This document shows positions 8,461-46,519 of a stretch of DNA of 50,064 bases, piece by piece. Positions within the stretch are counted from its first letter, which is position 1. Every line of letters starts with the position of its first letter. The notes under the pieces were generated by a model that saw only the letters and a program-made list of their open reading frames with translations, had not been told where the DNA came from and searched no databases. Made by a program: the position numbers and the translations under genes. The stretch is from a virus (taxonomy: Duplodnaviria; Caudoviricetes), in IMG/VR virus record IMGVR_UViG_3300044217_003764, positions 1 to 50,064 of that record. One strand, written 5' to 3'.

Positions 8461-8900
8461 TGGCCGATCCGTTTACATGGACAATGATTGCGGCTGGCGC
8501 TGGTGCGGCGGGTTCTCTGGCCGGCGGCTTCATGGAAGCGAAGGGACTTGATGCGCAGGCCAACGCTGCCGATTACAAGGCCCGGAACCTGGCGTTGCAG
8601 GCAAATCAGACCAAGGCCACGCGCGCGGTCGAGCTGAATGATACGATGGCCACGATCGATGCGATCCGAGGCTCACGGAACGTCTCTCTGGACAGCCCGA
8701 CCGCAATGGTGATCGAGCGTGCCCGGAAGCAGAAGAGCGATGACGTCACCAATGCCGAAGTCCTTGGCATTCGGCAGGGCATCACCGAAGCGAACTATGA
8801 AGCGAAGAATGCCCGTAGCGGCAAGAAGTGGGCGCTCGCCAGTGGAGTGCTCGGCGCCGCCGGGTCGCTCGCGCAAGGCTTCGCACAAGGAGGCGGATAA
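8460..8900 (+). CDS. Small internal virion (ejection) protein
   Basis: Gly/Ala-rich hydrophobic termini; position after tail tube B. Confidence 0.7.
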   Translation: MADPFTWTMIAAGAGAAGSLAGGFMEAKGLDAQANAADYKARNLALQANQTKATRAVELNDTMATIDAIRGSRNVSLDSPTAMVIERARKQKSDDVTNAEVLGIRQGITEANYEAKNARSGKKWALASGVLGAAGSLAQGFAQGGG

Positions 8901-41126: not shown

Positions 41127-41165
41127 AAAAGAAAAGCCCCCGCCGGACGTATCCAGCGGGGGCTT
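41127..41165 (-). terminator. Intrinsic terminator ending the ribozyme operon
   Basis: AAGCCCCCGCTGGA-loop-TCCGGCGGGGGCTT followed by TTCTTTT on minus. Confidence 0.85.
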
Positions 41166-41182
41166 CCTTGTTGGGGACAAGC

Positions 41183-41695: not shown

Positions 41696-41752
41696 GGTGG
41701 AAAAGCCCACCGGATGGCCCTGCTGCCAGTTCAGCAACAGGGCGCACCGCTA
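41696..41752 (-). ncRNA. Structured intergenic RNA motif B, copy 2
   Basis: TAG-CGGTG-C-[12-bp stem]-CATCCG-GTGG-GCTTTT-CCACC. Confidence 0.6.
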
Positions 41753-42295
41753 GGCTCCGGTGCCGACGACTTGCTCGAGTCGGTCAGCTACCGCGTCCAG
41801 GTCTCCCCGATACGTTGGGAAGGCAACAACCTGCGCACCGTCGGTGGCGTAATTGATCACCTCGATGTTCAGGTCGGTTGGGAGTGCAGGGGATTCGGTT
41901 GCCGGTTCTGGCACCTTGTCGCCTGTCATGTAGAGCCACTTGGCCGTGACCGTGGCGAACACAAAGCCCGCCGCCGCCGCGTATTGCATCACGAGCGGGG
42001 TATTGTCCCCGAACAGCCAGAGCGCGCCGTAATGGTGCACCCAGACCTCAACGCAAGCCAGGAAGAAGGCAAAGATGGCCGTGGCCGTTGCTTTCCACTT
42101 GGCAAATCCCGCGCGCATCATGACCAGTTCCAGCGACTCCGAAAGGAGCCATGTGAACGTGGCCAGGAAGCCGAGCAGGACCGCGACACGATCCCAGCCA
42201 AATCCCGCGTGACGTAGGCCGATGGCTGCAATCACGTTGGACATGAGGACGATGGCCACCGGCGCAAGCGTGGTGGCGTTCTGTCTTAGGTTCAT
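41750..42295 (-). CDS. Operon gene 7, multi-pass membrane protein
   Basis: AATGGAGAC SD then MNLRQNA; about 4 hydrophobic segments. Confidence 0.8.
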   Translation of the reverse strand: MNLRQNATTLAPVAIVLMSNVIAAIGLRHAGFGWDRVAVLLGFLATFTWLLSESLELVMMRAGFAKWKATATAIFAFFLACVEVWVHHYGALWLFGDNTPLVMQYAAAAGFVFATVTAKWLYMTGDKVPEPATESPALPTDLNIEVINYATDGAQVVAFPTYRGDLDAVADRLEQVVGTGA

Positions 42296-42318
42296 GGTTG
42301 GTCTCCATTTATTGAGCT

Positions 42319-42372
42319 GTCTCATCAGTGGCGCTTGCTCAAGACGCCAGACCCGCCGGGGCGGGTTTCGAC
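42319..42372 (-). ncRNA. Type II hammerhead ribozyme HH1
   Basis: GUC-GAAA-CCCGCC/GGCGGG-UC^UGGCG/CGCCA-CUGAUGA-GAC; loop I UUGAGC pairs with 3' tail GCUCAA; cleavage 42350/42349. Confidence 0.93.
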
Positions 42373-42584
42373 TAGGTGTCATCCTCCTGTGTTGCGATTT
42401 TGATCAATTCACGCTGTGGGCTGAGTATTGCGCCCAGCAGCAGGAACGCGCCCAGCGTGGCGGCAATGAACACCGCCAGCCCTGCCAGCCCGTGAATCTC
42501 GAATGCAGCAGGCACCATAAGGCTGCAGCAAACAAGGATCACCAGGCCGGACAGAATGCCGGTCAGGCGCATGGGGTCGTTCAT
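42372..42584 (-). CDS. Operon gene 6, two-TM membrane protein
   Basis: CAATGGAGG SD; TAG stop overlaps HH1 stem II. Confidence 0.8.
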   Translation of the reverse strand: MNDPMRLTGILSGLVILVCCSLMVPAAFEIHGLAGLAVFIAATLGAFLLLGAILSPQRELIKIATQEDDT

Positions 42585-42617
42585 GCGGTATCCTCCATTG
42601 GTTTTAGGGTGTGGCCT

Positions 42618-42680
42618 GTCTCATCAGTAGCGAGGGGCCAATCTCGCCAGACCCCACCCCTTGCGGGGTAGGGTTTCGAC
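42618..42680 (-). ncRNA. Type II hammerhead ribozyme HH2
   Basis: Stem III ACCCUACCCC-GCAA-GGGGUGGGGU, C^, stem I UGGCGAG/CUCGCUA, CUGAUGA; pseudoknot UGGCC/GGCCA; cleavage 42650/42649. Confidence 0.95.
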
Positions 42681-43417
42681 TATGCCGCAACCGGCATTTT
42701 CTCCGGTTCTTGCACGATCGCCAGGGGCGCGCCCGTGGTGTCAAACCATTGCGGACGTCCAGAGTCCGCGCCGGCATTGGCACGCAAGGGCATAAGCACG
42801 CCGAACAGGTCGCGCTTACCGTCATCTGCAGGCCCGAACGTCACCAAAGCGGGATCATTCGGCCCCTCACTCCAGATGGAGATCGGGGCAGACCTTTGAT
42901 TGCAGAAGTCTGCAGCGGCCATTGTGAACGCCTTGAGGTAATTGGCGTCATACGTTGACGCCTGCGTCACGGGCTTGCAGTTGGAGAACCGGGGAACGAC
43001 TCGCGTGATGTCTGGAAAGTCTCCGTCTATCACCTCGAACATGTGAGCCCCAACGGGCAGGCGCCCTCCGTTTTCGTCCATGTCGAACAGGAAGCCCGGC
43101 GCGCAACATGACTCGGTATCATCGGGGTTCACCTCGATCATGCGAGTGCCAAGCGTTTTGCGGTCTTCCTTGAACACTGCGCCGGGCAGCTTGTGGCCTT
43201 CCGTTCGCAGGATCACGCCTTTACCGTCCGGCGCGAAGCCGTCCGGATCATAGGCAACAATGAGCTTGTGACCGTCCGTTGCCGCCAGCATCACACCGGG
43301 CTGATTGCCAGGCGCGCGGCTGACGTGAAGCCCATTCAGGTAATAGCGGCTCTTCTCTTTCGAGGTGAACCGATAAACCGTGCGGAAAAGGGCGGCACTA
43401 AAGCGATAATTGGTCAT
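42680..43417 (-). CDS. Operon gene 5, DNA polymerase III beta (sliding clamp)-like protein
   Basis: SRYYLNGL...AATDGHKL and IDGDFPDITRVVP match DnaN central-domain motifs; only 245 aa. Confidence 0.75.
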   Translation of the reverse strand: MTNYRFSAALFRTVYRFTSKEKSRYYLNGLHVSRAPGNQPGVMLAATDGHKLIVAYDPDGFAPDGKGVILRTEGHKLPGAVFKEDRKTLGTRMIEVNPDDTESCCAPGFLFDMDENGGRLPVGAHMFEVIDGDFPDITRVVPRFSNCKPVTQASTYDANYLKAFTMAAADFCNQRSAPISIWSEGPNDPALVTFGPADDGKRDLFGVLMPLRANAGADSGRPQWFDTTGAPLAIVQEPEKMPVAA

Positions 43418-43444
43418 TGTGTAGTCTCCATTGATTGTAACCCT

Positions 43445-43506
43445 GTCTCATCAGTGCAAGGCGGGTTAGGCCCTTGCAGACCCCGGCGCGCGGCCGGGGT
43501 TTCGAC
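43445..43506 (-). ncRNA. Type II hammerhead ribozyme HH3
   Basis: Stem III ACCCCGGC/GCCGGGGU, C^, stem I UGCAAGG/CCUUGCA, CUGAUGA; pseudoknot UAACCC/GGGUUA; cleavage 43479/43478. Confidence 0.95.
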
Positions 43507-43988
43507 TATCCGCGCTTTCGGCGCATCAGGTCAGTGAGGGAAACGACTTGCGGCGTCCCCTCCGGTTCGTCAAAGCCCCAAGGGGCATCGTCGTAACCAG
43601 GAAGTTTCGAGATCATGGATTTTCGCAGTTGCTGCACCCATTTTGCGGCCCAGCGTTCGTGATAATCGTTCGTTTCACATGCCTGATAGTCGTAACAATC
43701 GCAGGCTTTCAGCACGATCACGGGAGTCACGAAGGTTGGGTGAATCCGTCGAAAGGTGTAGCGTTCGATTGCTTCCATCCCTTCCAGGTCGTCACCTTGA
43801 TAGCGGAACAGCACCGAGCGCGTGTTTTCACGCAACAGGGCCTTTCCGAGAGCGTCCGCATCATCCGGGTCGTCACCTTTTGGCGCGCCGGGTAATGTGG
43901 AAAAATACGAGCTGGAAAAGTGGCGATCATCCATAGCTGCTGTTACCAGCAGGCTGATATGATCGTCGCTCACAACAAAAGCGGACAT
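43506..43988 (-). CDS. Operon gene 4, hypothetical phage protein
   Basis: CAATGGAGA SD then MSAFVVSDDHI; ENTRSV..RY and CYDYQACE motifs. Confidence 0.8.
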   Translation of the reverse strand: MSAFVVSDDHISLLVTAAMDDRHFSSSYFSTLPGAPKGDDPDDADALGKALLRENTRSVLFRYQGDDLEGMEAIERYTFRRIHPTFVTPVIVLKACDCYDYQACETNDYHERWAAKWVQQLRKSMISKLPGYDDAPWGFDEPEGTPQVVSLTDLMRRKRG

Positions 43989-44010
43989 AGGTATCTCCAT
44001 TGTTTAGCCT

Positions 44011-44071
44011 GTCTCATCAGACCGCAGGCGGCTAATCCTGCGATGACGCTCCGGTTAGGGAGCGTTTCGAC
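44011..44071 (-). ncRNA. Type II hammerhead ribozyme HH4
   Basis: Stem III ACGCUCC/GGAGCGU, C^, stem I AUCGCAGG/CCUGCGGU, CUGAUGA; pseudoknot UUAGCC/GGCUAA; cleavage 44045/44044. Confidence 0.95.
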
Positions 44072-44289
44072 TATTGGAAATCTTCGAGTCGGTGGCGTAC
44101 CGGCCGCCCATTGATCATGGGAACACCCCAGACCGTGGCCACACCGGCCGCATTGACCAGCGGTAGGTAAATAGGCGCAATTTCCCATGCAGCGCGCTGC
44201 TCTGACACGGTTTCCCATGTCCACCCTTTCGGCAGGTCGTAGCCAATAGGTGCAGCAAGGCACTCGCGTTCCGAGTTCGTGAGTTGCAT
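44071..44289 (-). CDS. Operon gene 3, 72-aa hypothetical
   Basis: CAATGGAGAC SD then MQLTNSERE; TAG overlaps HH4. Confidence 0.75.
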   Translation of the reverse strand: MQLTNSERECLAAPIGYDLPKGWTWETVSEQRAAWEIAPIYLPLVNAAGVATVWGVPMINGRPVRHRLEDFQ

Positions 44290-44317
44290 TTCAGTCTCCA
44301 TTGTATGGGTTTCGCGT

Positions 44318-44372
44318 GTCTCATCAGTGCCAGGCCGCGAGCCCTGACAGACGCCCCGGAGGGCGTTTCGAC
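44318..44372 (-). ncRNA. Type II hammerhead ribozyme HH5
   Basis: Stem III ACGCCC-UCCG-GGGCGU, C^, stem I UGUCAGG/CCUGGCA, CUGAUGA; pseudoknot UCGCG/CGCGA; cleavage 44350/44349. Confidence 0.95.
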
Positions 44373-44374
44373 TA

Positions 44375-44620
44375 TTAGATCGGTTCAAATTCCGCGCACG
44401 GTAGGCGTTCAAAGCCTGAAGGCTTGTGCACCTTCACAAACCGCCATCCGAGGCACTTCAGCACCGCGCGCATTTCATCGCAGGCTTGGTTGTCTCCCTC
44501 GGCGAAGTAGGCGAAGACTCTGCGCGTGACGCCCTCGCCAATCGTCCGAACCCCTCGGCAGGCGATGTCTTGCGCCTTAAATTGCGCCAGCGCTTCGCCC
44601 GGTTTAATTGGGTACGTCAT
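44375..44620 (-). CDS. Operon gene 2, 81-aa hypothetical
   Basis: CAATGGAGA SD then MTYPIKPG; ends TAA-TAG abutting HH5. Confidence 0.75.
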   Translation of the reverse strand: MTYPIKPGEALAQFKAQDIACRGVRTIGEGVTRRVFAYFAEGDNQACDEMRAVLKCLGWRFVKVHKPSGFERLPCAEFEPI

Positions 44621-44651
44621 TAGTTCAATCTCCATTGTAGGTAATTGGCCT

Positions 44652-44708
44652 GTCTCATCAGTGCAGCTAGGCCAGATGCTGCAGACCGGGCCGGAGCCCG
44701 GTTTCGAC
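44652..44708 (-). ncRNA. Type II hammerhead ribozyme HH6
   Basis: Stem III ACCGGGC-UCCG-GCCCGGU, C^, stem I UGCAGC/GCUGCA, CUGAUGA; pseudoknot UGGCC/GGCCA; cleavage 44684/44683. Confidence 0.95.
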
Positions 44709-44878
44709 TAATTGGCGTCTTTCCCGTCATGCCAGTGACCTTGAACCAGGTTCACGGATGCGATGAGGGCAACGGCGACAGCAAGTGCGAATAGAGTTGC
44801 GAAGGGCCACAGGGCCAGCAATGTAGCCATGACCTTCACGCCCATCAGCGCGGCGAGTGCCATAAGTGCAAAACGCAT
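44708..44878 (-). CDS. Operon gene 1, 56-aa hydrophobic peptide (absent from the ORF track)
   Basis: CAATGGAGA SD; MRFALMALAALMGVKVMATLLALWPFATLFALAVAVALIASVNLVQGHWHDGKDAN ends exactly at the TAG of HH6. Confidence 0.75.
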   Translation of the reverse strand: MRFALMALAALMGVKVMATLLALWPFATLFALAVAVALIASVNLVQGHWHDGKDAN

Positions 44879-44904
44879 AATTCAATCTCCATTGAGTGTG
44901 ATCT

Positions 44905-44993
44905 GTCTCTTCAGGCCCAGCGCGATCAATCACCAGGCGACACGGCACGCGCTTAGACATGGGCTGGAGAGGCCCGGCGCGCCGTGTTTCGAC
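44905..44993 (-). ncRNA. Type II hammerhead ribozyme HH7 (5' leader, extended stem III, CUGAAGA core)
   Basis: GUC-GAAA-CACGGC.../...GCCGUG-UC^GCCUGGUG/CGCUGGGC-CUGAAGA-GAC; pseudoknot UGAUC/GAUCA; cleavage 44939/44938. Confidence 0.9.
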
Positions 44994-45048
44994 TTGTCCC
45001 TAACGATGTCAAACAACATGAGCGGGGAAATGAGCCCGTCCCATGCAT

Positions 45049-45093
45049 TCGATAATATCGAACATATCGAGCAATTGCAATCGAAAATATCGA
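45049..45093 (-). promoter_or_regulatory. Promoter of the ribozyme operon overlapped by three operators
   Basis: TTGCAA(45080-45075)-17-TATTAT(45057-45052); TCGA-N5-TCGA at 45049, 45058 and 45081. Confidence 0.75.
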
Positions 45094-45127
45094 ACAAAAC
45101 CCCCAAGCGATAGACAAAACGCCATAG

Positions 45128-45160
45128 ATGCTAGAGACAATGCTAGAGACAACAGAGACA
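45128..45160. repeat. Tandem 12-bp repeat ATGCTAGAGACA x2 plus a partial copy
   Basis: Seen directly upstream of terS. Confidence 0.7.
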
Positions 45161-45196
45161 CAGGCGCGCCAGCGCCGCGCAGCGGGATCATGACCA

Positions 45197-45694
45197 ATGG
45201 CCGGTAAACCCCTTCAACGTGAAGCCAACGCCGCATTGCAGGCTCGTATCGAAGAACTCGAGAAAGAACTAAGCCAAGCCCTGCAACAACTCGCCATTCA
45301 CGCGCCCGGTGTGGTCCTGAATGCCATTCCGCCCGAAATGACAGAGTATTCAGCCGACTTGCCCGATAAGGTCGTGGCATTGGGGTCGCTCGGCATGACA
45401 CAGGCCATGATGATCGCTCAATTGGGTATTTCACGGGATACGTGGGATGAGTGGAAGGATACCTTCCCTGCACTCAAAGCCGCCGCCACTCGCGCGCGCA
45501 CGTTGGCACTGGCCAAGATGGATGAGTTACAGCAGCAGGCCGTGCATCGCAAAGACAACAAGTTCCCACACCAGGCCGCGAACGAATTCAGGAAAACCCT
45601 GCAGAATGAGGGGCTTAGTGAGGGTGGCGCTGGTGATGCGTCTAAGCTGGTGCGCGTTGTTAATGGTCTGACTGCTGATAAGGTATCAGGCTAA
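45197..45694 (+). CDS. Terminase small subunit (probable)
   Basis: EYSADL...LGISRDTWDEWKDTFPALKAA HTH typical of TerS; upstream of terL. Confidence 0.7.
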   Translation: MAGKPLQREANAALQARIEELEKELSQALQQLAIHAPGVVLNAIPPEMTEYSADLPDKVVALGSLGMTQAMMIAQLGISRDTWDEWKDTFPALKAAATRARTLALAKMDELQQQAVHRKDNKFPHQAANEFRKTLQNEGLSEGGAGDASKLVRVVNGLTADKVSG

Positions 45695-46444: not shown

Positions 46445-46519
46445 TGTGGGGTGGCGCAGAGGTAGCGCGTCGGTCTCATAATCCGAAGGTCGGAGGTTCG
46501 AATCCTCTCCCTGCACCCA
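46445..46519 (+). tRNA. tRNA with CAU anticodon (fMet-like sequence, atypical identity elements)
   Basis: Cloverleaf: TGTGGGG/CCCTGCA, D stem GCGC, loop CTCATAA, GGAGG-TTCGAAT-CCTCT, encoded CCA. Confidence 0.85.

Follow-up and report, generated by a model that had tools for sequence, protein, structure and literature searches.

Clusters of type II hammerhead ribozymes are known from prophages. In the ardA triple of Agrobacterium tumefaciens and in the clusters of Azorhizobium caulinodans and Clostridium scindens, several copies lie on one polycistronic transcript, each of them flanking one small, inconstant gene, and cleavage of such clustered prophage hammerheads was observed in vitro and, in the case of one set, in vivo as well (Perreault et al. 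2011, PMC3088659, cited here and below for part of its text). Cleavage in vivo has also been described for three type II hammerheads of Desulfovibrio vulgaris (PMC8782182, excerpted text). Reviews suggest that such ribozymes process polycistronic transcripts into parts that differ in stability or translation, and they still list the role of many phage hammerheads as open (PMC6765202, PMC6155905). Here we describe an array of seven type II hammerheads in the Caudoviricetes record IMGVR_UViG_3300044217_003764 of IMG/VR, a complete virus record of 50,064 bp that was analysed at its full length and is called the window below. The array resembles the prophage clusters in its type II topology, the pseudoknot between loop I and the tail, the short stem II, the several copies per polycistronic transcript, the single small and inconstant gene flanked by each copy and the phage context. 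It differs from them by having seven copies in 2.7 kb and by its uncultured, marine-type phage, and it adds a near-identical Shine-Dalgarno (SD) leader per copy, a stop codon that overlaps stem II and a replacement that concerns the genes only. Overall, the array belongs to the known clustered type II hammerheads of phage operons, and the additional observation is the exchange of genes between conserved ribozyme linkers.

We consider it probable that the locus is a leftward operon punctuated by seven self-cleaving hammerheads, which insulate and cap swappable gene cassettes and whose products are mainly linear. During transcription, each ribozyme would fold and cut after its GUC, and the cuts would yield six one-gene RNAs (255-829 nt each), preceded by a short leader and followed by a 3' remainder of about 1.2 kb. 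The 5' end of every unit would be a 5'-OH that is base-paired in the stem I hairpin and followed by the pseudoknot tail and the same SD sequence, and its 3' end would be a GC-rich stem III hairpin with a 2',3'-cyclic phosphate. The ribozymes would insulate each small, often exchanged gene in this way and would give it standard, hairpin-protected ends. Re-closure of the ends is formally possible, but it would be expected to be rare and short-lived, and the products would be overwhelmingly linear. The anatomy of the array, its conservation with compensatory changes and the swapping of genes between conserved linkers are observed below, while cleavage in vivo and the part played in stability and insulation are inferred.

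When the window was searched with a core-motif regular expression, the minus strand gave seven type II hammerheads, located from 44994 to 42311, and the plus strand gave none. Their cleavage nucleotides (C17) were placed by a structural finder, which yields about one spurious match per 90 kb of unrelated DNA (2 in 24 chance loci). The limits of the array in the initial annotation (42350-44939), as well as its example of a joint between 44684 and 44938, agree with the computed cleavage nucleotides. The six units bounded by the cuts contain one open reading frame (ORF) each, and the remainder of about 1.2 kb behind the last hammerhead contains a 181-aa and an 85-aa ORF without a downstream ribozyme. 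Each copy consists, from 5' to 3', of A-GUC-GAAA, the stem III hairpin, U-C and the cut, the stem I hairpin, CUGA(U/A)GA-GAC-A, the tail, AAUGGAG and the start codon. In all seven copies stem III has 6-11 contiguous bp and stem I 6-8 bp, both closed by a loop, while stem II is open and formed by 3 bp from the flanks, which is the type II permutation (stems I and III closed, stem II open). The core that was required of a hammerhead (C3 U4 G5 A6 N7 G8 A9, G12 A13 A14, the pair A15.1-U16.1 and H17 at the cleavage site) is present in all seven copies as CUGA(U/A)GA, GAAA, the closing pair A...U and GUC. A pseudoknot of 5-6 bp between loop I and the tail after GAC is likewise found in 7/7 copies, where Perreault et al. 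(2011) asked for at least 4 pairs that join loop I to the tail 3' of stem II (PMC3088659, in the part cited).

Six of the seven copies are also recognised by the Rfam family RF02276 (Hammerhead_II) with 38.8-45.9 bits, above its gathering score of 37 bits. The first one, hammerhead a, is not reported by Rfam even at E <= 10. In its core, CUGAAGA, the free position 7 is an A, and its stem III has 11 bp; this copy is recovered by the structural finder and is conserved in two relatives of the window. These relatives are L019, a contig from IMG/VR in which eight hammerheads occupy 3.1 kb and the linker design is that of the window, and L267, a metagenome contig of 2.4 kb, the only contig obtained from a scan with a 24-base stretch of hammerhead e. 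The features of the operon are, in the direction of transcription:

45052-45080, minus strand: candidate sigma-70-like promoter TTGCAA-17-TATTAT, 9/12 positions matching, about 60 nt upstream of hammerhead a
44897-44994, minus strand: hammerhead a in the 5' leader, C17 at 44939, CUGAAGA core, 11-bp stem III with a large loop, found by the structural finder
44708-44878, minus strand: ORF of 56 aa, unit 1 (RNA 44938-44684, 255 nt), no family, identical protein in L267
44644-44709, minus strand: hammerhead b, C17 at 44684, RF02276 41.9 bits
44375-44620, minus strand: ORF of 81 aa, unit 2 (RNA 44683-44350, 334 nt), no family, UAA followed by an in-frame UAG
44310-44373, minus strand: hammerhead c, C17 at 44350, RF02276 45.9 bits
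44071-44289, minus strand: ORF of 72 aa, unit 3 (RNA 44349-44045, 305 nt), no family
44003-44072, minus strand: hammerhead d, C17 at 44045, RF02276 44.8 bits
43506-43988, minus strand: ORF of 160 aa, unit 4 (RNA 44044-43479, 566 nt), no family, an unrelated 128-aa ORF in its place in L267
43437-43507, minus strand: hammerhead e, C17 at 43479, RF02276 38.8 bits
42680-43417, minus strand: ORF of 245 aa, sliding-clamp-like, unit 5 (RNA 43478-42650, 829 nt), matching phrog_3007 and phrog_947
42610-42681, minus strand: hammerhead f, C17 at 42650, RF02276 43.7 bits
42372-42584, minus strand: ORF of 70 aa, hydrophobic, unit 6 (RNA 42649-42350, 300 nt), 29.6% identical (E 2.5e-7) to an L019 ORF
42311-42373, minus strand: hammerhead g, the last of the array, C17 at 42350, RF02276 41 bits
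41750-42295, minus strand: ORF of 181 aa, the first in the 3' remainder, with 39% identity to the ORF that follows the final L019 hammerhead
41132-41167, minus strand: intrinsic-terminator-like hairpin of 16 pairs followed by a T-run, the probable end of the operon

Judged by the promoter-like site and the terminator-like hairpin, the operon spans about 3.9 kb, and the array takes up its first 2.7 kb.

The comparison with L019 shows which parts of the locus are kept. Homologues of the 70- and 181-aa ORFs and of the 245-aa ORF (50.6% identity) are each located there behind a hammerhead with an orthologous 3' half (0.81-0.89 identity). Between the orthologous hammerheads of L019 and the window, base pairs have changed on both sides and no pair is broken, at a distance where the flanking proteins are 30-51% identical. 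Two such compensatory pairs are found in stem I of hammerhead e and one each in stem I of g, stem I of d and the pseudoknot of d. Since these two-sided changes occur without a broken pair, they point to selection on the RNA structure. The number of cassettes is less constant, as there is one between the 245-aa and the 181-aa gene in the window and there are three between their homologues in L019.

The exchange of genes is most directly visible in L267. This contig is 96-99% identical to the window where the two align, that is in the promoter region, in hammerheads a, b, d, e and f and in the 56-aa and 245-aa genes (98.4% identity for the 245-aa ORF), and it is collinear with the native order without any permuted junction. 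However, a single gene of about 94 aa takes the place of the 81-aa gene, hammerhead c and the 72-aa gene, and an unrelated 128-aa gene replaces the 160-aa gene. The replaced segments are 44623-44074 and 43994-43507 in the window versus 765-1047 and 1128-1522 in L267, and the breakpoints fall at the SD/start codon on one side and at the stop codon/AGUC on the other. By eye, L019 seems to have a homologue of the 94-aa gene at a different place. Three RNA contigs of relatives also contain a hammerhead 3' half that is followed by a different gene, with the switch at 44623, 44004 and 42301. Since the breakpoints coincide with the linker edges, the ribozyme-plus-SD linkers appear as a conserved frame and the ORFs as its exchangeable content.

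The same breakpoints also suit a role at the level of the DNA, in which the ribozyme-plus-SD blocks of about 70-100 bp serve as homology patches for the exchange, deletion or insertion of genes and RNA cleavage is secondary. ORF-only replacement at linker edges in a relative of 96-99% identity and the variable number of cassettes between conserved genes would follow from such a role, and so would hammerheads whose halves best match different copies. The latter are found in L019, where the copies at 8778 and 11286 were compared with hammerheads b and g of the window: in copy 8, stem III resembles that of window copy b (0.94) and stem I plus the tail resemble those of copy g (0.89). In copy 3 of L019, a b-like stem III is joined to a c-like 3' half. 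At the DNA level, there are thus hammerheads that are chimeric relative to each other. A homology patch, however, needs neither an intact catalytic core in 7/7 copies nor compensatory changes in stem I and the pseudoknot, nor does it need all copies on a single strand, and published arrays of this kind do cleave (PMC3088659, in the part cited). We therefore regard the patches as quite unlikely to be the principal function of the linkers, and they could coexist with RNA processing.

For seven ribozymes that insulate and cap gene cassettes, the position of the predicted cuts is suitable, 54-66 nt before the GGAG of the conserved AAUGGAG leader in 7/7 copies. When the six excised units were folded with a nearest-neighbour model, the 3'-terminal stem III hairpin had a probability of 0.85-0.88 in 5/6 of them. 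A ribozyme upstream of an RBS (ribosome-binding site) is known to insulate a cassette from its context, and its hairpin stabilises the mRNA (PMC6993053, excerpted text). In the RiboJ insulators of Lou et al. (2012), as described in the excerpted text of PMC6993053, a self-cleaving hammerhead just upstream of the RBS removes the upstream context and leaves a structured, stabilising 5' end, as the copies of the window would do. RiboJ is, however, an engineered type III hammerhead from a satellite RNA with an added hairpin, whereas the copies of the window are natural type II ribozymes that recur at each gene boundary and, unlike RiboJ, would equip the upstream product with a hairpin at its 3' end as well. 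The likeness to insulators makes sense for a stretch in which genes come and go, and the mechanism also agrees with the processing role suggested by the reviews (PMC6765202, PMC6155905). The locus is a compact and well-conserved example, with seven ribozymes, six single-gene units and standard leaders, and the conservation of the linkers together with the gene swaps points to a natural insulator and end-cap role for plug-in cassettes. The array also offers natural type II ribozyme-SD parts.

A different fate of the excised units had been proposed in the initial annotation, according to which the ends of each unit rebuild a hammerhead and yield small protein-coding circular RNAs. The structural basis of this idea holds. 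In the excised unit, N1.1, stem I, CUGAUGA, GAC, the pseudoknot tail, the SD and the ORF are followed by GUC-GAAA, stem III and C17 with its cyclic phosphate. The ends of a unit therefore carry complementary hammerhead halves, and by docking these could form a nicked hammerhead whose loop II is the ORF. As claimed, stem II is GUC/GAC in all seven copies, and each stem III and each stem I differs from all others. The pseudoknot was also said to be copy-specific, which is not strictly correct, since the two copies with C17 at 44684 and 42650 share the core UGGCC/GGCCA. A 3' half can be combined with any 5' half of the same stem II, because stems I and III are each closed in themselves and both pseudoknot partners are located on the same end. 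In the window the stem II halves match in 6/6 units, and they do so in L019 as well. Folding gives the chimeric stem II no disadvantage. Its nearest-neighbour probability is 0.000-0.042 in the six units versus 0.000-0.012 for the native stem II in the seven uncut contexts, which favours the earlier proposal. However, since both are improbable without tertiary terms, folding cannot separate the two models.

The reasoning from stem II itself is less convincing. Its invariance had been taken as an argument for interchangeable ends, but it can be explained otherwise. The C-G pair of stem II is the universal hammerhead pair. The G of stem II lies within the UAG that ends the upstream ORF in 5/6 cases, and in the sixth an in-frame UAG follows the UAA stop. 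As the C-G pair is universal and the G is tied to the UAG, only one free stem II pair is left. There is also little room for change in a helix of 3 bp beside the core, so that the invariance of stem II needs no interchangeability. A 3-bp helix would presumably also tolerate wobble intermediates less than a 7-bp hairpin, which can explain why stems I and III drift and stem II does not.

We surveyed stem II in other phages. An IMG/VR pattern scan, in which the core and the bases adjacent to stems I and III were fixed and stem II was left free beyond the universal C-G, gave at least 120 loci. The pattern was built from the window copies, so the sample leans to their subfamily, and all counts of the survey are among the matches listed. 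The finder identified at least 200 hammerheads, in 113/120 loci, with GUC/GAC, GC/GC, GGUC/GACC, GGCC/GGCC, GGAC/GUCC and others as stem II. GUC/GAC is present in 32/85 single and in 35/115 clustered copies and is thus the most frequent form with or without a neighbour that it would have to fit. The initial annotation had stated that an equally invariant GUC/GAC in solitary hammerheads would remove its argument. In strictly solitary copies (3 kb free of further copies to both sides) GUC/GAC is indeed the commonest stem II, but with 11/26 it is not invariant there.

The survey also speaks to the claim that the two ends of a unit are always compatible. Within 28 arrays, the chimeric stem II of neighbouring copies equals or exceeds the shorter native one in length in 72/87 pairs, whereas only 36.5% of random pairs from different loci are compatible. 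It is shorter than both native ones in the remaining 15/87 pairs, and in 12/87 it has at most 1 bp. Both members score above the RF02276 gathering score in two of these latter pairs, with 1 bp in L149 and 0 bp in L156. Fully compatible are 19/28 arrays, but only 4/11 of those with at least five copies, so that 7/11 of the large arrays hold at least one misfitting neighbour pair. All units have compatible ends in the window and in L019, but this is not general. Shared descent of the copies already predicts a high compatibility within an array, and the exceptions indicate that compatibility is not maintained.

If the ends docked through the shared GUC/GAC stem II and were joined by an RtcB-type ligase of the host or by reversal of the hammerhead, the outcome would be six translatable mRNAs in circular form, or else shuffled products of trans-ligation. 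RtcB and tRNA ligases do join ends of this type (PMC8782182, excerpted text), and eukaryotic retrozymes form circles likewise (PMC7229834, excerpted text). Hammerhead ligation, in contrast, is poor, at about 0.01 versus 1 per min (PMC12118343, excerpted text), and natural genomic hammerheads show about 10% ligation versus 90% cleavage even though their products are held by long helices (PMC3884650, excerpted text); here only 3 bp would hold them. The circle would, moreover, contain a complete hammerhead with stable stems and a pseudoknot and should therefore re-open. The idea is not new either. For clustered hammerheads, "spliced or circular RNA products" had been considered by Perreault et al. 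(2011), who, according to the part of their paper cited here, detected neither (unpublished data; PMC3088659). Apart from this negative remark, our literature searches gave no account of phage hammerhead arrays as a source of circular mRNAs.

Among the families compared, the phage gave no ligase for such a step, although a host enzyme may be available. RtcB had no match in the window and none in 10 other array-bearing phage records, of which 2 are at least 90% complete. The Rnl2-type ligase family PF09414 and the 2H/LigT family PF13563 were likewise without a match in the window. Viroids of the Avsunviroidae and retrozymes are like the array in that hammerheads cut out units whose 5'-OH and 2',3'-cyclic phosphate ends can be ligated by proteins. 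Their units, however, are identical tandem repeats or use type I/III motifs and are non-coding, whereas those of the window are different mRNAs. In viroids and retrozymes, alternative folds silence the ribozyme and a tRNA ligase or RtcB is needed, whereas the ribozymes of the window look constitutively stable and a phage-encoded ligase was not found. In the Tornado system, flanking self-cleaving ribozymes make ends that RtcB joins into circles. There, a long engineered stem holds the ends together and the ribozymes are absent from the product, whereas in the window a 3-bp stem would have to suffice and an active ribozyme would be regenerated at the junction.

The transcripts that could be compared contain no joint. 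Two marine metatranscriptome runs, with which the region shares 0.09 and 0.05 of the sampled words, are kept as contigs. Eight pieces of these RNA contigs fall on 41700-45250 and belong to relatives of 95-99% identity; none of them contains a joint and none reaches the 3' end of a unit. Four pieces end within a hammerhead 3' half, with 10-28 nt left to the predicted 5'-OH end, and 0/8 run across a cleavage site, where it has to be considered that assembled contigs cannot show RNA ends. We regard docking of the unit ends with subsequent joining as unlikely, and the more specific claim that some or all excised RNAs become closed translatable circles or cross-ligate via stem II, joined by a host RtcB-type ligase or by the ribozyme and kept from re-cutting by ribosome traffic across the overlap of stop codon and stem II, as very unlikely. 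Nothing in the present data shows circles; as a claim, circular mRNAs lack support and are unlikely. If it were true, a bacterial virus would for the first time be seen to make natural circular mRNAs that code for proteins, which would be remarkable.

The overlap of stem II with stop codons might alternatively have a regulatory meaning. Ribosome traffic could decide on the folding and cutting of each ribozyme and could in this way set gene-by-gene ratios or timing. The UAG that supplies the G of GUC at the end of the upstream ORF would suit such a switch, as would the SD at 10-19 nt past the stem II strand, and UAGUC is the commonest context of the GUC-type copies elsewhere (34/68). However, one orthologous copy of L267 has a UAA just before GUC and no overlapping UAG, the leader copy, hammerhead a, has no upstream ORF, and the mechanism as such is purely speculative. 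A translation-coupled switch is therefore an unlikely main role of the array and a lesser possibility that can coexist with processing.

Several points also weigh against an operon in which hammerheads insulate and cap the cassettes. The 5'-terminal stem I hairpin, which should protect the units, has probabilities of 0.91, 0.60, 0.22, 0.00, 0.28 and 0.02 in the six units, in a folding model without the pseudoknot. The proposed part in insulation and stability is drawn from analogy with the systems discussed above. The RNA data for the array are eight assembled contig pieces, and these come from relatives. Promoter-like sites are not above chance by count, with 3 in the region versus 1.8 +/- 1.3 in shuffles, so that it is the position alone that supports the promoter candidate. 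Finally, 5/7 of the genes that follow a hammerhead are without a known family, and the biology of these genes therefore gives no guidance. No function was obtained for these five from Pfam, PHROGs, NCBIfam and one ESM Atlas query.

In a bacterial and archaeal collection with one genome per species, a pattern for the ribozyme-SD module gave 24 matches, which is about the number expected by chance, and no hammerhead at a matched site. The operon had no blastn match among GenBank phages, and when viral contigs were searched for loci related to that of the 245-aa protein, none of 6 pattern matches was confirmed. A pattern of CUGAUGAG plus SD was also tried in viral contigs; it hit 117 stretches, of which 6 contain a hammerhead according to the finder, and the remainder was rejected as chance.

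Some observations concern the detection of hammerheads in general. In the 11 large arrays of the survey, 45/78 finder calls were above the gathering score of Rfam. The arrays L154, L165 and L225 contain 5-9 hammerheads with complete cores, stems of 7-12 bp and a 4-bp stem II (GGUC/GACC, GGAC/GUCC and AGCC/GGCU), but 0/19 of their copies exceed the RF02276 gathering score and 10/19 are found below the threshold at 25-36 bits. The RF02276 model thus seems to under-call this subfamily. Two copies of L156, near 6038 and 4889, score above the gathering score although U-G or U-A replaces the C11.1-G10.1 pair at the base of stem II. In hammerhead a of the window, the loop of stem III has about 24 nt (..CUCUCCAGCC.AUGUCUAA..) and is conserved in L019 and L267; it is possible that this loop binds something.

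The product of the 245-aa ORF may be a half-size sliding-clamp-like protein. The ORF matches phrog_3007 (E 6e-22) and phrog_947 (E 1.4e-5) and, weakly, DNA_pol3_beta_2 and dnaN. Of these, phrog_947 is annotated as a DNA polymerase processivity factor and phrog_3007 as a "RusA-like resolvase".

Upstream of the array, an 11-base direct repeat, AATATCGAACA, occurs at 45054-45064 and 45086-45096, with a third, partial copy at 45064-45070. The repeats are located in the divergent region between the hammerhead operon and a small-terminase-like gene, where they flank or overlap the hexamers of the promoter-like site, and they are operator-like. About 750 bp downstream of the small-terminase-like gene, a tRNA gene with the anticodon CAU is present on the plus strand at 46445-46516 (Rfam tRNA, 61 bits).

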